From Bacteroidota bacterium (lineage in GTDB: Bacteria > Bacteroidota > Bacteroidia > Bacteroidales > CAJPTX01), in assembly GCA_002748015.1 (NCBI GenBank), contig PDRH01000025.1, forward strand, positions 1 through 34,999: DNA of 34,999 bases. Reading direction: 5' to 3'. How positions within the stretch are numbered: position 1 is the stretch's first letter; every line of letters begins with the position of its first letter. Both the position numbers and the translations under genes were made by a program. Below, one piece after another: positions 8,957 to 20,583 of this stretch. The notes under the pieces were generated by a model. It did no database searches. It saw only the letters and a program-made list of their open reading frames with translations, and was not told the DNA's origin.

Positions 8957-8964
8957 CAAAGTTA
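8957..8964 (-). promoter_or_regulatory. -7 box (TAnnTTTG)
   Basis: The minus strand reads GCTAACTTTGTGGG, ~45 nt upstream of ATG 8913. Confidence 0.35.
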
Positions 8965-9077
8965 GCATTTTTTCCACACTGCGCACATCTCCCCCAGCTC
9001 GGGCCAAGGGGGGGACGTAGCGAGCCACCCACTCATCAAAAGCCTAATTACTAGTAATCAAGAAGCTAGGACAGACA

Positions 9078-9848
9078 TCAGGTCTTGAGCACCTCGCAAT
9101 GCCCATGCGGCCATCCACCCCTCTCGCCCCCAGCGTTAGCTACACCATCCACACCGCCCAATGGCCTCAGCGCGGCCCCCGTCGCCCTGCTCCCCCCGCT
9201 AGCCCCACGCCCCTTCGCCACGTACACATATAGGCTAGCCCACCTGGACTTCCCCTTCACCTCAACTGTATAGTACGCATGCAATGCCCCGCTAGCCGCC
9301 CACTTCGGAATGCTAATCCGCACAGCCTCCCCCCTCTTCGGCGCATCGAAACCCACGTGCAGCGTACGCCCAGCCCCAGCTGAATGCACCGCCATCCTCA
9401 CCCGCCTCGTCCCCCGCGGCAAACCCTTGGGAAAGCCCACGACCATCTCCCGCCCATTCCGCTTCACCTCCATGGGAAATGCCTCCAGCGAGTTCCCCTC
9501 GGACAGCTTAACATTCTGGTAGTCAATTTCCCATCCACCCTTCCCCTTCCTCATCCCCGACTTCAGCAGCTCCCCCAGCGCTACGTGGTAAGCCCCCACC
9601 GCCCTGCTCTGCCACCCCGGCCTATTGGTCATCCTGGGCTTAAATCCCCGCGATACCATCGGTTGCATCTGGCAGAGGAAACGGCTCGCCACGGCCAGCT
9701 TATTCCTATTGGCCTGCTGGCACTCCGTCCGGGGATTACGGATTTTCTCGGCACGATCACGGACGTACATCCGCTCCTCCCTTACTACGTATACAACGGG
9801 GTTCTGCTTGCTCCAGTACTTCGGGCGCACGGGGGTAATTTGGGCCAT
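9078..9848 (-). CDS. Hypothetical protein, DUF6266-like
   Basis: 256-aa ORF. The N-terminal segment ...YVRDRAEKIRNPRTECQQANRNKLAVASRFLCQMQPMV... resembles the NPRT-x-x-Q...R-x-KF/L signature I associate with DUF6266. The C-terminal ~45 aa is a Gly/Ala-rich low-complexity tail. Confidence 0.45.
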   Translation of the reverse strand: MAQITPVRPKYWSKQNPVVYVVREERMYVRDRAEKIRNPRTECQQANRNKLAVASRFLCQMQPMVSRGFKPRMTNRPGWQSRAVGAYHVALGELLKSGMRKGKGGWEIDYQNVKLSEGNSLEAFPMEVKRNGREMVVGFPKGLPRGTRRVRMAVHSAGAGRTLHVGFDAPKRGEAVRISIPKWAASGALHAYYTVEVKGKSRWASLYVYVAKGRGASGGSRATGAALRPLGGVDGVANAGGERGGWPHGHCEVLKT

Positions 9849-10193
9849 GGGCTAATTGATTGGTGGTAATGGTTATACGCATACCGTTTGAAAAGGTTTG
9901 CGCTTGGGTAATACCCTACCCTTCTCCCTCCATCGCCACAGCCCCCGCTCCGAATTTGCGCTAGGGGAAATACGGAGCGGCTGGCCATGCGAACACGGGA
10001 TGCTACAGGGGGGACGGCAGGAACGACGTGCACGGGGATGCCTACATCCCTACCATTTGCAGATAAATGTGCGCATGATGAATGCCTGTAAAAATGCACC
10101 TTCTATACTATTGGTCAGCTACTTAGCTATGGGCTACTCTGCACCCAGCTTCCCCCTCCCAGAGGTCTAGCATAGGAACAGGCGGCATTGACC

Positions 10194-10224
10194 ATGCCCT
10201 ACCCCCAGCGCTGGGGTAGGGCAT
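10194..10224. repeat. Near-perfect 31-nt palindrome / hairpin
   Basis: ATGCCCTACCCC-C-AGCGCT-GGGGTAGGGCAT has 12-bp arms around a self-complementary AGCGCT core, with one bulged C. It lies in the 461-bp divergent intergenic region. Confidence 0.7.
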
Positions 10225-10280
10225 AGTCAAAACTAAACTACGTACGCCCGGCACCCTTACGGGCTACCAGGCGTTTTTTG

Positions 10281-10288
10281 TACCTTTG
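10281..10288 (+). promoter_or_regulatory. -7 box (TAnnTTTG)
   Basis: GGCGTTTTTTGTACCTTTGCC, 22 nt upstream of ATG 10310. The track start at 10286 is a TTG inside this box. Confidence 0.5.
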
Positions 10289-10309
10289 CCTGAAATAGGA
10301 GGAGGTATT

Positions 10310-11959
10310 ATGGCGATAGAGAAGGGTAAATTCCCCAACACGACGGCGAGCTTTGAGAAGATTCGCGAGCATGAGATGTACTATGTGGACAAGACTGCGA
10401 AGCTATGGCAGCTGGCCAACCGTTCCGAAGTGGTCTTCCTAAGCCGCCCCCGTCGCTTCGGGAAGAGCATGCTGCTGGATACCATAGGCTGCTACCTGGA
10501 GGGGCAGAAGGAGCTCTTCGAAGGGCTCAAGCTCTACCCGCTAGAGGAGTCCATGGGGGAGAAGGCCTGGGCCAAGCACCCCGTGCTGCGCTTCGACTTC
10601 AGCGGCATAAGCGCCCTCACACCAGCGGCCATGGGGGAGATGCTGCACGTGCGGATCAGCGGCACCCTGCGAAGACTCGGGCTACCCACGCAGGGGAAAG
10701 ACGCCCCGTACAGTATATACGAGGTGATGGAGCTGCTCCATGAGGCCACCGGCCAGCGCGTCGTCGTGCTAATCGATGAGTACGACAGCCCTATACTCGA
10801 TGCGCTGGTGAAGGGCGATACCGCACTTCTGGAGGATATCAAGGCCTACCTCCGCAGCCTCTACAGGGCGCTCAAGTCGGCAGACCGCCACCTCCGCTTC
10901 CTCATGGCCACGGGCGTGAGCCAGGTGCGCCAGGTCGGCCTCTTCAGCGGCTTCAACAACATCGAGGACATCAGCTTCGACCCGGATTTCAGCACCATCT
11001 GCGGCATCAGCGAGGAGGAGATTCACGAGTACCTCCCCGAGCAGCTCGCGCACATGGCGGCGAAGAATGGCCTGACGGTGGAGGAGCTGCTGGTCCAGCT
11101 CAGGTATAAGTACGACGGCTACCGCTTCTCCGAGAACGAGGAGCATGTCTACAACTCCTTCGGGCTGATCAATGCGCTGAAATCCTGCCGCCTTGAGAAC
11201 TACTGGTCCAGGACTGGAACAGCCAGCAGCGCGGATAAGCTGATACCGCGCTACAATGCGCTGGGAGTGCTGCACCTCGATGGGGTGCTAAGGGCAAGTA
11301 TAGATACTCTTTCCCGCTTCAACTTCGAGCATAGCGACCCCCTGGGCTTCCTCTACCAGTCGGGCTATCTGACCATCAAGGGCATGGACGATGATGGGGA
11401 CTTCCTTCTGGATTTTCCGAACAAGGAGGTGCGCGAGAGCATCATGGAGATCCTCGCCCCCCGAACCCTCGGTATAGCGCAGGAGTACGAATACCGAAGC
11501 CGCAACAGCGACCTGGTGAAGGCCCTCAAGGGTACGGACATCAAGACCCTTGAAGTGTGCATACAGGCCCTGCTCGCCAGCCTCCCCTTCGACCACGAGA
11601 GGCAGGATAGGGAAGATGCCCAAAAGGTCTGGGAGCTGCGCGAGGCGCGCTACCGCGATGCGCTCCACCTCATCTTCGCTGGGGTACGTAGCGACGTTCG
11701 CGTGGAGCAGATCGGGGCGGGGGGCATTTCGGATGTGGAGATCATCGGCGCAAAGATGATAGTGATCATCGAGCTAAAGATGAAGCGGAACGGAATGACC
11801 GCAGGGAAGGCGCTGGCCCAGGCCCTGGGGAATGGCTACCCCGACAAGCATAGCGGCGGGGAGAAGCCCGTGTGGGCTGTGGGCGCAGTAATCGGGGAGA
11901 AGGCGCAGGTAGAGTGGATGGAGGAGTGCGTGTGGGAGGGTTCTAGCCAGGAAAGGTAG
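10310..11959 (+). CDS. AAA-ATPase-like N-terminal domain fused to a PD-(D/E)XK nuclease-like C-terminal domain (Bacteroidales 'predicted AAA-ATPase / DUF1703' family)
   Basis: MAIEKGKFPNTTASFEKIREHEMYYVDKTAKLWQLANRSEVVFLSRPRRFGKSMLLDTI... contains a Walker-A-like RRFGKS, then VVLIDEYDSPI (Walker B). The C-terminus has ...GISDVEIIGAKMIVIIELKMKRN..., a D...E-x-K nuclease core. Confidence 0.8.
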   Translation: MAIEKGKFPNTTASFEKIREHEMYYVDKTAKLWQLANRSEVVFLSRPRRFGKSMLLDTIGCYLEGQKELFEGLKLYPLEESMGEKAWAKHPVLRFDFSGISALTPAAMGEMLHVRISGTLRRLGLPTQGKDAPYSIYEVMELLHEATGQRVVVLIDEYDSPILDALVKGDTALLEDIKAYLRSLYRALKSADRHLRFLMATGVSQVRQVGLFSGFNNIEDISFDPDFSTICGISEEEIHEYLPEQLAHMAAKNGLTVEELLVQLRYKYDGYRFSENEEHVYNSFGLINALKSCRLENYWSRTGTASSADKLIPRYNALGVLHLDGVLRASIDTLSRFNFEHSDPLGFLYQSGYLTIKGMDDDGDFLLDFPNKEVRESIMEILAPRTLGIAQEYEYRSRNSDLVKALKGTDIKTLEVCIQALLASLPFDHERQDREDAQKVWELREARYRDALHLIFAGVRSDVRVEQIGAGGISDVEIIGAKMIVIIELKMKRNGMTAGKALAQALGNGYPDKHSGGEKPVWAVGAVIGEKAQVEWMEECVWEGSSQER

Positions 11960-11993
11960 GACTCGGCGTAATTCGATGGGCAGATAAAAGGGC

Positions 11994-12001
11994 TATCTTT
12001 G
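11994..12001 (+). promoter_or_regulatory. -7 box (TAnnTTTG)
   Basis: GGCTATCTTTGCGC, ~80 nt upstream of the yihY ATG at 12080. Confidence 0.4.
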
Positions 12002-12079
12002 CGCAGCGCATCCGGGTGGAGGGGTGTAAATGTGGCGGGCAGGCGCGCATAGGTTAGCACGAGCAGAAAAAGTAGCATA

Positions 12080-13435
12080 ATGGCAAAGGAAGGCATAGGT
12101 ACACGCTTTCGACGATGGTACGGGGCGGCAGCCGGCTTCATACGGCATGAGGTGTGGAGCGTGGAGCGCGAGGCCTTCTCGCGGGGGCGGTACCGGCTGG
12201 TCATCGCTCTTCGGATTGCACTCCTGACGTTCCGGGGCTTCAGCGAGAAGCGGGTGCAGCTGCGGGCGACGGCGCTGACCTTCTACTCGCTCATGTCGCT
12301 GGTGCCGGTGATCGCGCTGCTCTTCGGCATAGCGAAGGGCTTCGGGCTGGAGGGAATGCTCAACGATATCCTGCGCGAGAAGCTGGCCCCCTACCCGGAG
12401 GTCTCGGCGCAGATTATCTCCTTCTCCGATTCGCTCCTGGGTCGCACGGGCGGGGGGCTGATGGCGGGGGTCGGGGTGGCGGCGCTGTTCTGGTCTGTTG
12501 TCAAGGTTTTCTCCAACATCGAGCGTAGCTTCAACGCCATCTGGCAGATCGACACGCCGCGGGCATGGGTGCGTAAGTTCAGCGACTACCTCTCGCTGAT
12601 GCTGATCGCTCCGGTGGTGCTGATCCTGAGCTCCTCGGCCAACCTGTACCTTCGAACGATGCTAAATGCGGGGGTGGACGATGCGCAGCTAGTACACCTG
12701 GCCAAGACAGGGATGCTGCTGGCGCTACGGGCATTGCCCTACGTGCTGGTGCCGCTGCTGTTCGCACTGCTCTACCTGCTGATGCCCAACACGAAGGTGA
12801 AGTTCAGCGCCGCGCTGGTGGCGGGAGCAGTGGCCGGGGTGGGCTTCGTGGGGCTGCAGTGGGGCTACCTGTACTTCCAGTTCGGGATGTCGAGCTATAA
12901 CGCCATCTACGGGAGCTTTGCCGCCTTCCCGCTCTTCCTGATCTGGATGCAGCTCAGCTGGATGATCGTGCTGCTGGGGGCAGAAATATCGTTTGCGGTG
13001 CAGAATGTGAAGCTGTTCGAGTACGAGAAGGAGACGCGCAACCTGAGCGTGCGACGAACCAAGGAGCTCTCACTGCTGCTGCTGCATACGCTGGTGGTGC
13101 GCTTCGAGGCGGGGGAGCTGCCGCTGACGAGCCACGAGCTGGCCGAGCAGCACCACCTGCCGCTGCGGCTAACGCACCGCCTGCTGCGGTGGATGGTGGG
13201 GGCGGGGCTGGTGTCGCGGGTGGAAGCCGAGGAGGGAAAGACGGTGGCCTACCAGCCGGGCATATCGGTAAACCGGCTGACAGTGGGCTGGGTGATGGCG
13301 GCCTACGAAACCTACGGGGAGACCGTACCCGCTGAAGGGGAGGTGCTGCACGAGATAGAGCGGCTGTACGAGGAGGAGGTGAAGGTGGATGGGGTGAAGA
13401 GGGTTGGGGATATTGGGCTAGATGGCGACCTTTAG
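12080..13435 (+). CDS. yihY: YihY/BrkB-family inner-membrane protein with a C-terminal winged-helix-like extension
   Basis: 451 aa. ...LRATALTFYSLMSLVPVIALLFGIAKGFG... and ...YGSFAAFPLFLIWMQLSWMIVLLGAEISFA... are the family hallmarks, with about 6 TM helices. Confidence 0.85.
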   Translation: MAKEGIGTRFRRWYGAAAGFIRHEVWSVEREAFSRGRYRLVIALRIALLTFRGFSEKRVQLRATALTFYSLMSLVPVIALLFGIAKGFGLEGMLNDILREKLAPYPEVSAQIISFSDSLLGRTGGGLMAGVGVAALFWSVVKVFSNIERSFNAIWQIDTPRAWVRKFSDYLSLMLIAPVVLILSSSANLYLRTMLNAGVDDAQLVHLAKTGMLLALRALPYVLVPLLFALLYLLMPNTKVKFSAALVAGAVAGVGFVGLQWGYLYFQFGMSSYNAIYGSFAAFPLFLIWMQLSWMIVLLGAEISFAVQNVKLFEYEKETRNLSVRRTKELSLLLLHTLVVRFEAGELPLTSHELAEQHHLPLRLTHRLLRWMVGAGLVSRVEAEEGKTVAYQPGISVNRLTVGWVMAAYETYGETVPAEGEVLHEIERLYEEEVKVDGVKRVGDIGLDGDL

Positions 13436-13939
13436 GGTCTTGAGCATTTCAACTGGGGTAGTGCAAGGGACTCTATACGCTTCGCAAACATCGGGTATCT
13501 TTATATTTGTCCTAGAGTTTGGGCTGCTAGCCTCATACGTAACGAGGGTATGGCCTTGATCTTTGGCGTAGGCAATTAACCAGATATCCGCATTTGTGTC
13601 TTTTTGAAACGTGTCTATTGCGGTTGTTCGGTAAAATTGCTTTCCACTGCTATCCTTGATATTCAGCGCCCATGAAATAAGCTCTTGGATAGTGCGAAGT
13701 ATAGATGGTGTTTTTGTATCCTTAAAAAAGTCACTTGGTAGAGCCTTCGTTACTAGGTCGTTGAGAAAGGGATCTTCCCCCTCATAATACAGAAGTTCCC
13801 TTTTAACTACATCTATGCTTATTATATCTCCCTGCTTCGCAAGGTGCTCAAGCTCCTTCCAATACGAAGGGAATACCTCCATAGGATAGTGCACTCGTTT
13901 AGAGGTTATGAAGATATTAGTATCCAGCAGATATTTCAT
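13418..13939 (-). CDS. DUF4411-like PIN-domain protein (putative nuclease/toxin component)
   Basis: 173 aa. It begins MKYLLDTNIFITS (PIN motif 1), with later acidic positions in ...DIISIDVVKRELL..., ...NADIWLIAYA... and ...TLVTYEAS. The ATG overlaps the upstream gene stop (ATGA, 13936-13939). Sampled 60-nt lines are 42-48% GC. Confidence 0.7.
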   Translation of the reverse strand: MKYLLDTNIFITSKRVHYPMEVFPSYWKELEHLAKQGDIISIDVVKRELLYYEGEDPFLNDLVTKALPSDFFKDTKTPSILRTIQELISWALNIKDSSGKQFYRTTAIDTFQKDTNADIWLIAYAKDQGHTLVTYEASSPNSRTNIKIPDVCEAYRVPCTTPVEMLKTLKVAI

Positions 13940-15075
13940 ACCCCTAGCTTTTCGATGTATGTATCGTAGGTTTTTCCCCTCAGCCCCATGAGGCGATAGG
14001 CATCGCGATGGGAGAGGTGGTGGTTCTGCACTGCAGAATCGACGAAGCGAGAGAAGGAACGCCCGATCCTCTTGATGGCAGTAGGATAGAATGACCCACC
14101 TTTTTGGGATTTTGGTTCGGCCGCCAGTTCTATACGCTGTTCCCGATAGTTTTGAAAGTATCGCTCCAGCTTCTCCCGATCAATGTGTCCGACCTCAAAG
14201 GCGCGGCGTGCCATGGCAATTGTGCTCACCCGAAAATGCGTGGCCGCCTTCTCTATGCTATGCCCTTCTGAGAAGTACTGCCTTACCATCCCTTCTGGCA
14301 TCAGAAGCTCTACGGCCACCAGATCGCACATCCGCTCGGTAGGATCGCTTGCGGCATCGGTAACCATGGCATTATTATCATGGGCGGCACTGCGGCCCAT
14401 CCATATATGGGCGAGTTCGTGGGCGAGGGTGAAGAGATTGGCCACAGGAGCGTCGCGCGCATTCAGGAAGATGAACGGGGCGTAGCGGTCGGAGAGCGCA
14501 AATCCACGGCACTCCTCAACGCTGATAGGGCGTCCCGTGCTATTGCCAACTATCCCGTTGGAGGAGATGAATATATTCTGCTGCTCGCATTGCTCCACCA
14601 GAAAACCTAGGGCCTCGCGCGCCCCCCTGTGCCTAAGCTGCCATCCCGCAGGTATCTTCAGGACTTCACGAATGGACGCGATGGCCTCCGCGTGGGTCGT
14701 CGAGCTCCCTACGAAGGGTAGCGGGGCAAATCCGAGCTCCAGCTCCATGTACTCTGAAAGCCAATCCTGGCGGAGCTGTAAAAGTTGAATGGTATCGTAC
14801 ACATTGAGGCTTGGCGCCTTGTGGGTAGCCTTCGCGCCCCGGAAATAGGGCATTGCCAAACTCTCATCTGGGGGAGAATCTCCGAGGAGCACCAACGGAT
14901 TGACGTGCAAGCGATCGGCAAAATCCCTTAGCTGCGCATAGGTCGGCTTCCTACTGCCCTTTACCCACTCCTGCCACTTTTCGTCCTTGGCTAGGAACTC
15001 TTCCAGCTCGTAGCCCGCCCGGTCTATTGCCCAGCGAAGCATATCAGCGGAAATGTGGTCAAGATAGGTTGCCAA
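13936..15075 (-). CDS. ImmA/IrrE-family (COG2856-type) zinc metallopeptidase with an N-terminal XRE-like HTH region
   Basis: 379 aa. It carries HEXXH in FTLAHELAHIWMG followed by ...CDLVAVELLMP.... The N-terminus, ...LRWAIDRAGYELEEFLAK...TYAQLRDFADRLHVNPLVLL, resembles a degenerate XRE HTH. Confidence 0.8.
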   Translation of the reverse strand: MATYLDHISADMLRWAIDRAGYELEEFLAKDEKWQEWVKGSRKPTYAQLRDFADRLHVNPLVLLGDSPPDESLAMPYFRGAKATHKAPSLNVYDTIQLLQLRQDWLSEYMELELGFAPLPFVGSSTTHAEAIASIREVLKIPAGWQLRHRGAREALGFLVEQCEQQNIFISSNGIVGNSTGRPISVEECRGFALSDRYAPFIFLNARDAPVANLFTLAHELAHIWMGRSAAHDNNAMVTDAASDPTERMCDLVAVELLMPEGMVRQYFSEGHSIEKAATHFRVSTIAMARRAFEVGHIDREKLERYFQNYREQRIELAAEPKSQKGGSFYPTAIKRIGRSFSRFVDSAVQNHHLSHRDAYRLMGLRGKTYDTYIEKLGV

Positions 15076-15109
15076 GACGTGAAGCTTTTTGTCACCAATA
15101 GGATTTGGG

Positions 15110-15117
15110 CAAAAGTA
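15110..15117 (-). promoter_or_regulatory. -7 box (TAnnTTTG) for the ImmA-DUF4411 operon
   Basis: The minus strand reads CGCTACTTTTGCCC, ~35 nt upstream of ATG 15075. Confidence 0.4.
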
Positions 15118-15294: not shown

Positions 15295-15302
15295 TACCTT
15301 TG
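15295..15302 (+). promoter_or_regulatory. -7 box (TAnnTTTG) for ffs
   Basis: TGTATACCTTTGTGG lies immediately upstream of the 5' helix of the SRP RNA. Confidence 0.5.
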
Positions 15303-15304
15303 TG

Positions 15305-15411
15305 GCGTGGGTAAGTCTTATGCGACTAGCTCCCCGTGAAACTCCCCAGGGTCGGAAGGCAGCAAGGATATCGGGTTGTAGCAGTGCGACATAAGTAGCT
15401 TGCCCACTTTT
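15305..15411 (+). ncRNA. ffs: Small (4.5S-type) signal recognition particle RNA
   Basis: The conserved domain-IV core CCCCAGGGUC-GGAA-GGCAGCAAGGA...GGGUUGUAGC resembles E. coli CCAGGUCAGGUCC-GGAA-GGAAGCAGCCAAGG...GGGAUGUAGC. The terminal helix pairs GTGGGTAAG/CTTGCCCAC and CTTATG/CATAAG. A T6 run at 15408-15413 follows. Ends are accurate to about 5 nt. Confidence 0.8.
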
Positions 15412-15484
15412 TTGTGCGCTAAGGTTTCGTAGGGGAGAGCCGGTCGGCCCACAGGGGGAAAGCGGGGGGAACGGCGTTTTTTGC

Positions 15485-15492
15485 TACCTTTG
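15485..15492 (+). promoter_or_regulatory. -7 box (TAnnTTTG)
   Basis: GGCGTTTTTTGCTACCTTTGTGC, ~22 nt upstream of ATG 15514. Confidence 0.5.
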
Positions 15493-15513
15493 TGCTACAC
15501 AAAAGAGCAAGGA

Positions 15514-16452
15514 ATGCCAGCCATGTCCAGATACGTCAACCCCTTCACCGACTTCGGTTTCAAGCGCCTCTTCGGTGAGGAACCCAGCAAGGATCTACTC
15601 ATCTGCTTCCTGAACGAGCTGCTGCGTGGGACGCAGGAGATTAAGGACCTCACGTACCTAAAGACCGAGCAGCTGGGGGATACTCGCCTAGACCGCAAGG
15701 CCATCTTCGACCTGTACTGCGAGAACGAGAAGGGCGAGAAGTTCATCGTGGAGCTCCAGAAGGCGCGCCAGGCCTTCTTCAAGGATCGGACGATCTTCTA
15801 CTCCACCTTCCCCATCCGGGAGCAGGCGATGCCGAACGACTGGGACTTCCGCCTGCGCCCGGTCTACACGATAGCCATCATGGACTTCATCTTCGAGGAG
15901 CGGGAGCAGTATGCAGACATCTACCGGCATGACATCCAGCTGCGGCACGGGGTTACTAAGGAGGTTTTCTACGACAAGCTGACGTTCATCTACCTCGAGA
16001 TGCCGAAGTTCAACAAGGAGGAGGAGGAGCTGGAGACGGACTTCGAGAAGTGGCTCTACGCCTTCAAGCACTTGAGCGAGCTGGATAGCGTACCGGAGCG
16101 GCTGAAGGGGCTGATGTTCGAACGCTTCTTCGCTCGGGCGGAGATAGCCCAATTCAACCGCAATGAGCTGCGGTCGTACGAGAATAGCCTGAAGGTGTAC
16201 CGCGACTGGAAGAACGTGCTGGATACGGCGCACGACGACGGCTACAAGGAGGGGAAAGAGGAGGGCTTTGAAAAGGGCTACGGGGAGGGGATCGAGAGGG
16301 GAATGCAAGAGGGGATCGAGAAGGGTATAGAAAAGGGTAAGCTGGCAGAACGTAGCGAGATGGCCAAACGGCTACTTGCAAAAGGCTTCAGCATTGAGGA
16401 GGTGGCGGAGCTGAGTGGCCTGTCTGCCGAGCAGGTGGCGAGCTTGGCCTAA
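15514..16452 (+). CDS. Rpn-family / PD-(D/E)XK 'putative transposase' nuclease
   Basis: Track ORF 15481..16452. The start is placed at ATG 15514 (or 15523): M(PA)MSRYVNPFTDFGFKRLFGEE...DRKAIFDLYCENEKGEKFIVELQKA (D...E-x-K core). The C-terminus has EG-x-EKG repeats (EGFEKGYGEGIERGMQEGIEKGIEKGK) and an HTH-like tail (FSIEEVAELSGLSAEQV). Confidence 0.8.
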   Translation: MPAMSRYVNPFTDFGFKRLFGEEPSKDLLICFLNELLRGTQEIKDLTYLKTEQLGDTRLDRKAIFDLYCENEKGEKFIVELQKARQAFFKDRTIFYSTFPIREQAMPNDWDFRLRPVYTIAIMDFIFEEREQYADIYRHDIQLRHGVTKEVFYDKLTFIYLEMPKFNKEEEELETDFEKWLYAFKHLSELDSVPERLKGLMFERFFARAEIAQFNRNELRSYENSLKVYRDWKNVLDTAHDDGYKEGKEEGFEKGYGEGIERGMQEGIEKGIEKGKLAERSEMAKRLLAKGFSIEEVAELSGLSAEQVASLA

Positions 16453-16768: not shown

Positions 16769-16776
16769 CAAAGGTA
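16769..16776 (-). promoter_or_regulatory. -7 box (TAnnTTTG) for tRNA-Cys
   Basis: The minus strand reads CCTACCTTTGCGGCGTTCCAGCAG followed directly by the tRNA 5' end. Confidence 0.45.
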
Positions 16777-17118: not shown

Positions 17119-20100
17119 ATGAGACGAATACGCTATTCATTACTACTGCTGGCCACCCTGCTGGTGGTTCTTACCCCCGGGGCGTGGGCCACGGAGATAA
17201 CAATAGGCCCCATTACGTATGAGATTGTTGGGAATGAGGCGCACGTTAAGAAGTGGGATCAGAACAGCACGGAGACTAGCTTCACTATCCCTGGCGTGGT
17301 GGATGGGGACAAGACCGTCACGAAGATTCTGGACAAAGCGATTATCTCTAATAAACTGACGTTCCTGTACATCCCCGGCACAGTTAAGCATATCGGGAAT
17401 CAGGCCGTGAATTGCGATAAACTGGGCGAGATATCGCTCAACGAGGGGCTGGAGAGCCTGGCCGATGAGGCCTTCTACCCGTCCAAGCTGACGGAGGTGT
17501 GGCTTCCGGCCTCCGTGAAAGAGATCGGCTATGACCCATTCCATTCAAGTGTACTCACGAAGATAGACGTGGCGTCGGGCAATACGCACTTCAGCGAGTA
17601 CAATGATGATGGGGTACTCTACAGCAAGGATTTGTCCCGGCTGATACAGTACCCCGCGGCCAAGGCGGATGCATCGTACACGCTCCCCTCGGCAACTCGC
17701 ACCATCGGGAGATACGCCATGGCGAATGCTAAGCTTGAGGCGCTCACGCTCAACGAGGGGCTGGAAAAGATCGAGAAGAAGGGGCTATTCTGGATGAGGA
17801 ACTTAACATCGCTTAGCCTCCCCTCCACGCTGACGACGCTGAAATGGCAGGCTCTTAAGCGATGCCTCCGGCTCGAGAACCTCCACATCGGCAAGGGGCT
17901 TTCCGCGATAGGCAACGAGGTGTTCTCTGATTGCAACCGCCTGCAGCAGTTCACGATAAATGCAGAGAATCCGAACTACACGGTAGAGGATGGGGTGCTC
18001 TACAACAAGCAGCTGACGCGGCTGATCAAGTATCCCGCCGGGAAGACCAACACGGAGTACGAGATTGTCAGTACGACAAAGAAAATGGATGGTGGTGCCT
18101 TCATGGGGAATACGCATCTCCAGCGGGTGGTGATCCCGGAGGGATGTACAAGCGTGAGCTTGAAACTATTCATGCAATGCAGCGCACTGGAGGAGTGCAC
18201 GCTCCCCTCGACCATCACTAGCATCGGCCAGTTCGCTTTCTGGGGAACTAATATCACCTCGCTTACCATCCCGGCCGGTATCAAAAGCCTCGACACGCAT
18301 AATATCGGATTGAACAAGACGACGGAACTGACGATACTGGCACGGGATCCCGCCACAATAACGACAGTAAATAATAATAGCTTCACTCTGACGATGATTC
18401 AGAAGTGTACGCTCAAGGTTCCCTACGGGTCGAAGGGGCTCTACGAAGCCCATCCGACCTTCAAGCTCTTTGAGAATGTAGGGCAGGGCATTGTGGAGCT
18501 ACCCGAGGTGAAAGTGGCTGAGGTTAGCTTTGACCTGGGCGACGAGGTGGACATCACGGTGGGCGAGGAGAAGGCCCTACCGACGACCATCAACCCCTTG
18601 AATGCGGACAACAAGAACCTCTTCTGGAAGTCGAGCGATACGAACGTAGCGACCGTAACCCAGGAGGGCAAGGTAAACGGCGTGTCGAAGGGGGATGCGA
18701 CGATAACCGTAACGGCCACCGGTAGCTCGGTGGAGGCGACGTGTACGGTGCATGTCCTGGACAACGTCATTGCCGTTACGAGCGTTACGGTTAGCCCCCA
18801 GGGGGAGACCATCTACGTAGGGGATCCCCTGCAGCTTACAGCCACAGTAGAGCCGAACAACGCCACGGGGGCAAGCTCGGTGGTGTGGACGAGTGCGGAC
18901 GAGAGCGTTGCTACGGTGAATCCCACCACCGGCCAGGTGACGGGGGTCGGACACGGCTCGACGGACATAACGGCAACAGCAGGCGGGGTGAGTGGCACTA
19001 CGACGGTTAACGTCAGGATCTTCAACTCGGTACTCGGCTTCGCCATAACGCCGACAGTGCTGCAGCTGGCCGTCAACGGCGAGGAAACGCTCATGCCAGT
19101 CTTCACACCGAGTAATGCGACTAACCAGAAGGTCAGCTGGGCCAGCTCGGATGCCAGCATTGCGAGCGTGGACGATGCGGGGAAGGTTACGGCCAAGCAA
19201 GAGGGTACGGCCACCATCACCGGCACGACTGAGGATGGCGGGCTACAGGCCACCTGCGCTGTTACCGTAGGCGACAAGATAACGAACATCACCCTCGTTC
19301 CAGCAACGAAGACCCTGAAGGTGGGTGAAGATGTGGCGGTGAGCGCAGCGGTAGAACCCGCCACCTCAACAGCCAAACTCCTTTGGAACAGCTCGGATGC
19401 GAGCGTTGCGACGGTTAGTGTAGACCCCAACGATAGCCACCTGGCCAACATTAAGGCCGTGGGCGAAGGGGAGTGCGACATCACGGCCAGCTCACCGGAC
19501 GGAACGGTTGCTGGTACATGCCACATAGTGGCCGAACCTGTGGCCGTAACGGGCATCAACATCACCCCGGAAACCTACGAGCTACAGGTGGACGAGACCG
19601 CCACCCCAACGGTAAGCATCGAGCCGAGCAATGCTACGAATAAAGGGGTAAGCTGGTCTGTCGCCCCAGCCGGCCTGGCGAAGGTTACCGGCGGGAAGAT
19701 TATCGCAATGAGCGCGGGGACTGCGACCCTGACTGCGACCACGGAGGATGGTGGCTTCACGGCCACTTGCACGGTAGAGATTAGCGACAAGCCAACAGGC
19801 TGGGTAGATGTAGATGGCGTTTCGCTGGACGCCACGGCCCTGGAGATGAAGGTGGGCGAGGAGAAGAGCCTCGTGGCTACCGTAGAGCCCGAGGATGCCA
19901 GCGACAAGACGGTAAGTTGGGAAAGCGACAATGAGGACGTAATCACCGTGGATACGGAGGGCAAGCTTACGGCCGTGGGTACTGGTACGGCGATTGTTAC
20001 CGTGACCACGAAGCATGGTATGCAGACGGCGGAATGCACGGTGAATGTATATGCGGCAACCCCTGTGGAGAGCGTTTCGCTGGATGCGACCAGCCTGGAG

Positions 20101-20583
20101 CTAAAGGTAGGCGAGGAGAAGAGCCTCGTGGCTACGATAGCCCCGGAAGATGCTACCATCAAGACAGTAAGCTGGGCCAGCAGCGACGAGAGCGTGGCCA
20201 CCGTGGATGCGAGCGGTAAGGTCGTTGCTGTGGCGGCCGGTACGGCGACGATTACGGTTACCACAGTAAGCGGTGCGAAGAGCGCCGACTGTACGGTAAC
20301 GGTGGCTACAATAGAGGGGGAAACACCTATAGTAGACAAGAAAGGGATGCCCGTAGAGCTAGCTCAGGGCAAGCGGATTACGGTTACGCCCAACCCGGCC
20401 GGGGGCACGATTAGCGTCGAGGGCCTTGAGGCCGGTGTAGAGGTCTGCGTATATAGCGCGATGGGGCAGCTGATGATGCGCCAGGTTCTCGCTCCGGCTG
20501 GGAGGATGGACATCAGCCAGCTGGCGCCGGGCCTCTACGTGCTACGTGCCAATGGGGCGGCGGTACGCTTCGTCAAGCAGTAG
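17119..20583 (+). CDS. BspA-like surface protein: signal peptide, BspA-type leucine-rich repeats, 7 Big_2 Ig-like domains and a T9SS C-terminal sorting domain
   Basis: 1154 aa. Signal peptide MRRIRYSLLLLATLLVVLTPGAWA. Residues ~25-460 are LRR_5-type repeats (...L..I.IP..V..IG..AF..C..L...). Seven repeats of ~85 aa follow the pattern V.V.P....L.VGE...L.A.V.P..A.N..V.W.SSD..VATVD..GKVTAV..G.A.IT.T. The C-terminus ...ISQLAPGLYVLRANGAAVRFVKQ is Por_Secre_tail-like. Confidence 0.9.
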   Translation: MRRIRYSLLLLATLLVVLTPGAWATEITIGPITYEIVGNEAHVKKWDQNSTETSFTIPGVVDGDKTVTKILDKAIISNKLTFLYIPGTVKHIGNQAVNCDKLGEISLNEGLESLADEAFYPSKLTEVWLPASVKEIGYDPFHSSVLTKIDVASGNTHFSEYNDDGVLYSKDLSRLIQYPAAKADASYTLPSATRTIGRYAMANAKLEALTLNEGLEKIEKKGLFWMRNLTSLSLPSTLTTLKWQALKRCLRLENLHIGKGLSAIGNEVFSDCNRLQQFTINAENPNYTVEDGVLYNKQLTRLIKYPAGKTNTEYEIVSTTKKMDGGAFMGNTHLQRVVIPEGCTSVSLKLFMQCSALEECTLPSTITSIGQFAFWGTNITSLTIPAGIKSLDTHNIGLNKTTELTILARDPATITTVNNNSFTLTMIQKCTLKVPYGSKGLYEAHPTFKLFENVGQGIVELPEVKVAEVSFDLGDEVDITVGEEKALPTTINPLNADNKNLFWKSSDTNVATVTQEGKVNGVSKGDATITVTATGSSVEATCTVHVLDNVIAVTSVTVSPQGETIYVGDPLQLTATVEPNNATGASSVVWTSADESVATVNPTTGQVTGVGHGSTDITATAGGVSGTTTVNVRIFNSVLGFAITPTVLQLAVNGEETLMPVFTPSNATNQKVSWASSDASIASVDDAGKVTAKQEGTATITGTTEDGGLQATCAVTVGDKITNITLVPATKTLKVGEDVAVSAAVEPATSTAKLLWNSSDASVATVSVDPNDSHLANIKAVGEGECDITASSPDGTVAGTCHIVAEPVAVTGINITPETYELQVDETATPTVSIEPSNATNKGVSWSVAPAGLAKVTGGKIIAMSAGTATLTATTEDGGFTATCTVEISDKPTGWVDVDGVSLDATALEMKVGEEKSLVATVEPEDASDKTVSWESDNEDVITVDTEGKLTAVGTGTAIVTVTTKHGMQTAECTVNVYAATPVESVSLDATSLELKVGEEKSLVATIAPEDATIKTVSWASSDESVATVDASGKVVAVAAGTATITVTTVSGAKSADCTVTVATIEGETPIVDKKGMPVELAQGKRITVTPNPAGGTISVEGLEAGVEVCVYSAMGQLMMRQVLAPAGRMDISQLAPGLYVLRANGAAVRFVKQ

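Follow-up and report, generated by a model that had tools for sequence, protein, structure and literature searches.

A protease-antitoxin and PIN-like toxin gene pair in a Bacteroidota contig: a probable divergent member of the VapBC52 type

Introduction

Fusions of COG2856 and Xre domains, with Rv2515c of Mycobacterium tuberculosis named among them, were tied to PIN and RelE toxins by Makarova et al. (2009; PMC2701414), and DUF4411.1 genes were later reported downstream of genes encoding helix-turn-helix (HTH)-DUF955 fusions (Matelska et al. 2017; PMC5499597). Both studies were computational and came without a mechanism; the predicted three-component toxin-antitoxin (TA) system of HTH-DUF955(COG2856) and DUF4411.1 combines the functions of regulator, protease and nuclease. 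Here we describe a gene pair of identical architecture in a 34,999-bp contig (PDRH01000025.1) of a metagenome-assembled genome (MAG) deposited as 'Bacteroidetes bacterium'; this entire contig is the stretch analysed and is referred to below as the window. The pair encodes a 379-residue HTH / Peptidase_M78 protein, which we call the antitoxin, and, overlapping it downstream, a 173-residue DUF4411 PIN-like nuclease, which we call the toxin.

The closest described system is VapBC52 (Rv2515c-Rv2514c) of M. tuberculosis. The toxicity of Rv2514c is relieved by Rv2515c (TASmania; Akarsu et al. 2019; PMC6504116), and the VapB52-VapC52 complex has been solved as entry 9VZY (Singh et al., Nucleic Acids Research, June 2026; PMC13273310). 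VapC52 is a PIN-domain tRNA nuclease (tRNase) and, of the DUF4411 proteins compared here, the only one with a demonstrated Mg/Mn-dependent RNase activity. In the 1:2 complex, a single large VapB52 holds two VapC52 chains that form a dimer; VapB52 cannot bind without its N-terminal domain, and its C-terminal domain blocks one toxin active site. Single-stranded DNA (ssDNA) triggers HEXXH-dependent self-cleavage of VapB52 that frees the N-terminal domain, with an 'FR' in the linker as the proposed cut site; in the inactive state, C229 in a 'cysteine switch loop' coordinates zinc. Overexpression of VapC52 protects M. smegmatis against phage D29 (all PMC13273310).

We put the probability at about 80% that the window pair is a chromosomal type II TA / abortive-infection module of the VapBC52 kind; a role in phage defence is probable by analogy with that system. 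The assignment rests on homology to the solved complex, the PIN fold of the toxin, conservation of catalytic, zinc and FR residues, near-obligate pairing of the two genes, and co-evolution of the partners. A preliminary description of this DNA had placed the protease/HTH protein in the antitoxin or sensor position and the PIN protein in that of the effector, which is the arrangement shown experimentally for Rv2515c/Rv2514c (PMC6504116; PMC13273310). Its statement that this pairing had no experimental characterisation is out of date, given the toxicity and rescue data of 2019 and the structure, tRNase activity, self-cleavage and phage resistance reported in 2026.

Results

Architecture of the pair and homology to VapBC52

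The features of the module are as follows; the two open reading frames (ORFs), one containing HELAH and the other opening MKYLLDTNIFI, and the ATGA that joins them, lie where they had first been described, both ORFs on the minus strand.

13936..15075, minus strand: antitoxin gene, an ORF with a TTG start, encoding the 379-aa HTH / Peptidase_M78 (ImmA/IrrE, COG2856) protein, a homolog of VapB52 (Rv2515c)
13418..13939, minus strand: toxin gene, encoding the 173-aa DUF4411 PIN-like nuclease, which opens MKYLLDTNIFI, a homolog of VapC52 (Rv2514c)
13936..13939, minus strand: ATGA stop/start overlap of the antitoxin and toxin ORFs (translational coupling), seen in the sequence
15110..15117, minus strand: Bacteroidetes-type -7 box TACTTTTG (TAnnTTTG), 35 nt upstream of the antitoxin TTG, seen in the sequence; putative promoter
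14878..15075, minus strand: N-terminal five-helix Xre-like domain, antitoxin aa 1-66, from predicted helices and the VapB52 alignment
14839..14844, minus strand: FR motif (F78 R79) in the linker between N-terminal domain and protease; probable self-cleavage site by analogy with VapB52 (PMC13273310)
14200..14493, minus strand: Peptidase_M78 catalytic domain, antitoxin aa 195-292 (Pfam envelope)
14407-14421, minus strand: HELAH (H219, E220, H223), antitoxin aa 219-223, seen in the sequence
14335-14337, minus strand: third zinc ligand E247 of the antitoxin, from invariance in 193 sequences and the VapB52 alignment
13939..14118, minus strand: C-terminal helical tail, antitoxin aa about 320-379, from structure prediction, of low confidence in isolation

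When the sequences of the Protein Data Bank were searched, both window proteins matched two chains of a single entry, 9VZY, and the toxin matched 9VZZ as well. The antitoxin aligned with 9vzy_A at an E value of 1.5e-14 when used alone (aa 9-351) and 7.5e-16 with its family profile (aa 7-349), matches that reach from the N-terminal domain through the protease/HTH middle domain into the beginning of the C-terminal domain; the toxin aligned with 9vzy_D over nearly its full length, at 1.6e-7 by itself and at 1.8e-18 once its profile was used. The library used for Foldseek structure comparison runs to April 2026 and is without 9VZY, and the comparison with VapBC52 is one of sequence and profile searches.

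Like VapBC52, the window pair is an antitoxin-first, overlapping two-gene operon whose antitoxin (about 380-415 aa in this type) consists of an Xre-like N-terminus, an FR linker, a HEXXH M78 protease with an HTH, and a helical C-terminal tail. The zinc ligands HELAH...E align with HEFVH...E of VapB52, and the window FR aligns with the VapB52 sequence DFRR. The toxin, like VapC52, is a DUF4411 PIN protein with five matching acidic residues, D6 included; unlike VapC52, it carries a short insertion, NIKDSSGKQ (aa 93-101). The two systems also differ in host, VapBC52 being from Actinomycetota and the window pair from a Bacteroidota MAG, and their identity is very low, homology being evident at the level of hidden Markov models (HMMs).

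The start of the antitoxin gene was set at the TTG at 15075, which gives 379 aa, and the N-termini of homologs (MATARIDINND..., MRTEVNINANM...) align with this start. The NCBI protein begins instead at Met12 and has 368 aa (window 15042-15075).

The pair had been credited with its own TAnnTTTG box, and this box is indeed present at 15117..15110. Across the window, 25 copies of the motif are present where 8.3 +/- 2.7 would be expected, and none of 100 shuffles reached 25. Other copies, at 15295-15302, 16769-16776, 11994-12001, 10281-10288 and 8957-8964, adjoin gene starts (those of ffs, tRNA-Cys, yihY and others). Because copies directly precede ffs, tRNA-Cys and yihY, TACTTTTG is credible as a promoter element, and TAnnTTTG, three-fold enriched in the window and placed immediately before these and other genes, is usable as a promoter marker on this contig. 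A scan for sigma-70 promoters and terminators gave matches at chance level and was uninformative.

Domains, folds and conserved residues of the two proteins

Profile searches returned for both proteins the families that had been proposed. The toxin matches Pfam DUF4411 (PF14367) at 2e-40 (138.6 bits, cutoff 23.5), with aa 3-171 aligned to positions 1-157 of the 159 in the profile, a profile that covers 7109 clusters at 50% identity. The antitoxin matches Peptidase_M78 at 5e-17 (62 bits, cutoff 22).

The toxin had been thought to open with a VapC/PIN-type acidic motif followed by three further conserved acidic positions, and an alignment of 23 DUF4411 sequences bears this out: D6, E48, D118, E136 and D150 are invariant, and the five acids line up with D, E, D, E and D of VapC52. 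The AlphaFold2 (AF2) model of the toxin (predicted local distance difference test, pLDDT, 94.1; predicted template modelling score 0.89) has the PIN alpha/beta/alpha fold. Its top 50 Foldseek matches in the Protein Data Bank are exclusively VapC, PIN or PIN-like HARP RNase P structures (probability 1.0, template modelling score on the target 0.6-0.7), including VapC2, the VapC of Shigella, FitB and M. tuberculosis VapCs, and structure prediction thus agrees with the PIN-likeness suggested for the 173-aa protein. Canonical VapBC modules likewise have a toxin of PIN fold whose N-terminus bears an Asp motif; unlike canonical VapC, however, the window toxin lies in the DUF4411 branch, for which an IKIPD motif is typical. 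Canonical VapBC joins a PIN protein of PF01850 to a small antitoxin of the ribbon-helix-helix, AbrB or Phd kind, whereas the window antitoxin has four to five times that size, is an enzyme, and has an unrelated fold.

The AF2 model of the antitoxin (pLDDT 74) comprises a five-helix N-terminal domain (helices 10-19, 24-28, 32-39, 46-56 and 60-64), a linker that is disordered at aa 73-91 (pLDDT <50), a protease/HTH core predicted with confidence, and a C-terminal tail for which confidence is low (pLDDT 33-52; helices 339-350, 356-362 and 368-376) in which the family alignment shows GGxFY, KR and AY motifs to be kept. The N-terminal domain (aa 10-64) gives weak Foldseek matches to BswR, 3bs3 and DdrO, and also aligns with the N-terminal domain of VapB52. 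The core matches IrrE/PprI (probability 1.0) and PrpR of M. tuberculosis, which are the structural neighbours reported for the middle domain of VapB52 (PMC13273310). By analogy with that protein (PMC13273310), the N-terminal domain would be the main part that binds the toxin, the C-terminal tail would occlude the toxin active site, and the FR motif of the linker is probably the site of self-cleavage.

Antitoxin homologs number more than 2600 and are about 375 aa long. Among 193 that were aligned, R79, H219, E220, H223, E247 and C250 are invariant, and F78 of the FR motif is present in 185 (96%), against 193 of 193 for R79. The position that aligns with Cys229 of VapB52 holds Phe in 188 of the 193, Ser in three, His in two, and Cys in none; the two with His (His232) are the window antitoxin and its closest relative, P0032. 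The FR cleavage motif and the catalytic zinc site are therefore family-wide and the cysteine switch is not, and, judging from the alignment, the logic of activation may differ.

Against the defence models of PADLOC, the best match of the antitoxin is capP (4e-17), followed by 13 HMMs for RmrA at 1.3e-12 to 1.4e-4; most of these 13 cover the peptidase core alone, and two extend over aa 39-312. Membership in the NCBIfam spr1629-family antitoxins was considered and rejected (33.7 bits against a cutoff of 335).

The RmrA matches raise the alternative that the module works in the manner of RosmerTA (RmrT/RmrA; Millman 2022), with a zinc-peptidase antitoxin that senses a phage protein or another cue, not ssDNA, and a release that may bypass FR cleavage (by degradation or titration). 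In RosmerTA too, an ImmA-like zinc-peptidase, often fused to an HTH, serves as the antitoxin, and an anti-phage function has been demonstrated; moreover, ImmA/Rosmer antitoxins were described in the NetFlax study as a defence-linked hub pairing with many toxins, PIN-like partners included (Ernits 2023; PMC10440598). The absence from the antitoxin family of the cysteine switch, by which ssDNA brings about the activation of VapB52 and CapP, also fits this view, as does the occurrence of type I restriction-modification (RM), GmrSD or AAA_21 genes in some flanks elsewhere. Rosmer differs from the window pair in that a membrane depolariser, and not PIN nucleases, is found among its characterised toxins, and in that the toxin gene often comes first. 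We consider the RosmerTA-style alternative unlikely. The window toxin matches no RmrT or other defence model, the best-scoring structural homolog of the antitoxin is VapB52, and the invariant FR motif argues for self-cleavage; the trigger proposed by the RosmerTA-style alternative, for its part, cannot be deduced from sequence.

Conservation and co-evolution of the pair

When species-representative genomes were scanned with the alignment of the antitoxin, at least 573 confirmed matches resulted; the best 80 loci were kept, and an HMM derived from the aligned toxins was used to score all their ORFs. The counts that follow refer to these 80. A DUF4411 ORF was present in 78 of the 80 loci. Among the 78 loci with at least 450 nt downstream of the antitoxin gene, the DUF4411 ORF lay directly downstream, on the same strand and abutting or overlapping it, in 75, the gap lengths being approximate as ORFs were taken from stop to stop. 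That the two genes are conserved neighbours elsewhere, which the first reading of the sequence had left to be seen, is hence well supported. The nearest toxin relatives (46% and 34% identity) are likewise preceded by M78 genes. DUF4411 genes also occur on 29 plasmids, across several phyla, and in two phage records; in the two plasmid pairs inspected (Gammaproteobacteria, RefSeq annotation), the genes overlap by 4 nt in the same manner and stand beside other TA modules.

Antitoxin and toxin identities are correlated across 2485 locus pairs (r=0.87), and the window pair falls on the regression line, with a toxin identity of 36.0% against the 35.5% expected from the divergence of its antitoxin. 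Because the identities correlate and the window pair is on the line, we regard the partners as cognate and co-evolving. The window pair forms a divergent branch, with about 41% (antitoxin) and 36% (toxin) identity to the clade, against about 60% and 55% within it.

Two related loci have unusual surroundings. At L060 (3232-6241; Prolixibacteraceae MAG OY761460.1), what comes after the antitoxin homolog is not DUF4411 but an unrelated protein of 368 aa that has a hydrophobic segment near its N-terminus, and a classical 125-aa PIN ORF lies just upstream; this may be a case of partner replacement. At L086 (2076-10340; GCA_003259765.1), the M78-DUF4411 pair lies among HTH_3, WYL_2, Peptidase_S24 and Toprim/DnaB-like primase-helicase genes, in what looks like a prophage or mobile-element context.

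Such a setting recalls a second alternative, in which the antitoxin acts as a switch like those of ImmA/ImmR (ICEBs1) or IrrE(PprI)/DdrO (Deinococcus), its substrate being a separate repressor of a mobile element or stress regulon, and DUF4411 is an accessory nuclease. The M78 domain, the IrrE/PprI Foldseek matches, capP as best PADLOC match and the company that L086 keeps all speak for it. These proteins, together with CapP/CapH of the cyclic-oligonucleotide-based antiphage signalling system (CBASS), share with the window antitoxin an M78 zinc-protease and an adjacent HTH motif, and their activation is linked to DNA damage or ssDNA. They cleave a separate Xre-type repressor, however, and so de-repress genes, whereas in the window substrate and protease appear to be fused and would neutralise the toxin directly. 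No separate Xre repressor, integrase, CBASS or element gene adjoins the pair in the window, where the neighbours are ffs and yihY. The unit conserved over the 75 of 78 loci is that of the two genes alone, and the co-evolution of the partners, as indirect support, along with the 1:2 complex solved for the homolog, points to direct binding of antitoxin to toxin. We therefore judge a switch of this kind very improbable.

A break in base composition and a sister genome

The PIN gene had been noted as more AT-rich than its flanks, and its G+C content (GC) is 0.425, compared with 0.63 for yihY. At third codon positions (GC3) the toxin gene has 0.45. The corresponding values for the antitoxin gene are GC 0.56 and GC3 0.645, and those of the host flanks are GC about 0.60 and GC3 0.72-0.89; the step coincides exactly with the antitoxin/toxin junction (the ATGA). 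The antitoxin-minus-toxin difference in GC is 0.135 in the window, as compared with 0.009 +/- 0.016 (maximum 0.048) in 71 other pairs, which puts the window about 8 standard deviations beyond them. Since most hosts of the family are low in GC (median flank GC 0.39), it is the toxin gene that looks 'native' and the antitoxin gene that looks ameliorated. Candidate explanations of the step are (i) unequal amelioration, (ii) throttling of the toxin by rare codons, and (iii) an old recombination at the junction. A recent swap of the toxin cassette was also considered as the cause, and was rejected as unlikely because the divergence of the toxin equals the value that the antitoxin predicts.

A sister genome, GCA_002754885.1, carries the module at the corresponding site (PDWJ01000120.1; L081, 6001-7348), within flanking DNA that is 80-83% identical, and the GC difference between its antitoxin and toxin genes runs in the same direction. 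The sister antitoxin, P0032, is intact, with 66% protein identity to the window antitoxin and an altered C-terminal tail. The sister toxin has lost about the first 100 codons, D6 and E48 included, and retains the last 70; truncation of the toxin beside an intact antitoxin is as expected for a costly toxin.

Taken together with a toxin GC3 of 0.45 in a genome of 0.72-0.89, the truncation of the sister toxin at the same site invites the view that the window module is a decaying or silent remnant, with an AT-rich, rare-codon toxin that is poorly expressed, on its way to the loss seen in the sister genome. Yet both window ORFs are intact, the catalytic, zinc and FR residues are all kept, and so are the promoter box and the coupling overlap; the toxin, moreover, is as diverged as its antitoxin predicts (36.0% against 35.5% identity). 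Of a remnant we think there is hardly any chance.

Genomic context

The module is placed among valS, two genes of no assigned function, an AAA-ATPase_like gene, yihY, ffs, a PDDEXK_2 (Rpn-like) gene and tRNA-Cys. Its immediate neighbours are the following.

12080-13435: yihY/BrkB, convergent with the toxin gene, its 3' end sharing 18 nt with the toxin 3' end
15302-15409: ffs, the Bacteroidales small signal recognition particle RNA (95.6 bits)

The idea that the module is the cargo of a mobile element in the window was rejected, as the site is syntenic in the sister genome and has no integrase. In a census of flanks elsewhere (130 proteins, at most two on each side of the pair, taken from those loci whose flanks were long enough), the families that recurred most were represented by three type I RM methylases, three specificity subunits, two GmrSD and two AAA_21/AAA_15 proteins, most of the remainder being housekeeping; as the census has no background control, an enrichment of defence genes is neither claimed nor excluded.

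A variable spot adjoins the TA module between yihY and the genes on the valS side (window 8972-12074, compared with 8697-9806 of L081): here the window has a DUF6266 gene (9078-9848) and an AAA-ATPase_like gene of PF09820 (10286-11959), and the sister genome has a DUF8237 gene. Beyond ffs, at 15481-16452, the PDDEXK_2 gene (Rpn-family recombination-promoting nuclease / putative transposase) is kept in the sister genome; a TAnnTTTG box (15485-15492) lies inside the listed ORF, which suggests that the true start is a downstream ATG. Farther on, 17119-20583 encodes a 1154-aa surface protein with BspA-type leucine-rich repeats, seven Big_2 domains and a C-terminal sorting domain of the type IX secretion system.

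Discussion

How the window module would work can be outlined from its homolog, from which the geometry of neutralisation, the ssDNA trigger, self-cleavage, the tRNA targets and phage defence are all borrowed. A single promoter (the TAnnTTTG box) would drive a translationally coupled bicistron. The 379-aa antitoxin would bind a dimer of the 173-aa DUF4411 PIN nuclease through its N-terminal Xre-like domain, with its C-terminal helices plugging the toxin active site. A stress signal, which in the characterised homolog is ssDNA (from DNA damage or phage replication), would then activate the antitoxin's own HEXXH zinc protease. Cutting at the conserved FR linker would detach the toxin-binding domain and free the toxin, and the freed PIN protein would cleave RNA, most likely in tRNA loops, arresting translation in the cell and in the infecting phage.

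Several observations weigh against this account, or against parts of it. First, as the identity to VapBC52 is low and detectable by HMM only, mechanistic details of that system may not transfer. The cysteine switch is the single point of genuine mechanistic doubt: the zinc-binding Cys229 of VapB52 is replaced by His232 in the window and by Phe in most Bacteroidota relatives, and because the residue is not conserved, auto-inhibition of the antitoxin, and perhaps its trigger, may differ from VapB52. Second, the Xre-like N-terminus proposed at the outset is upheld by the five-helix AF2 model, the weak Foldseek matches and the VapB52 alignment and not by Pfam, in which no HTH matches the antitoxin N-terminus at E<=1. 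Third, no operator-like palindrome or repeat was found near the antitoxin promoter, so that autoregulation is unsupported. Finally, as to defence, the homologous VapBC52 gives phage resistance, in keeping with the defence role first suggested; this, however, rests on overexpression of the toxin only. In addition, the 173-aa toxin has no PADLOC match at E<=1, RmrT models included, the window module sits between the housekeeping genes yihY and ffs and outside any defence island, and elsewhere a minority of flanks carry RM or other defence genes.

On the VapBC52 assignment, the window module is a divergent member of a characterised type (COG2856-Xre plus DUF4411) and no new class of system, and the only features that deserve follow-up are the missing cysteine switch and the GC break inside the operon. 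Tentatively, the Bacteroidota branch, and the His232 variant in particular, may have replaced activation by cysteine switch and ssDNA with another form of auto-inhibition and another trigger; the GC break might reflect an exchange of the toxin cassette or deliberate rare-codon throttling. We hold this to be doubtful, though if activation had indeed been replaced, the same PIN chassis under protease control would respond to another cue of infection or stress.

For the contig itself, the assignment would turn two genes annotated as 'hypothetical / ImmA-IrrE' into a named TA or defence module. For the family, it would mean that the VapBC52 architecture, in which a PIN tRNase is gated by a protease antitoxin that cleaves itself, is found beyond Mycobacterium in a large clade of Bacteroidota, the one that gave the confirmed matches (at least 573) in species-representative genomes. 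The FR motif and the zinc site are universal among the 193 antitoxins and the cysteine switch is not, which offers a testable point on how these antitoxins stay inactive.

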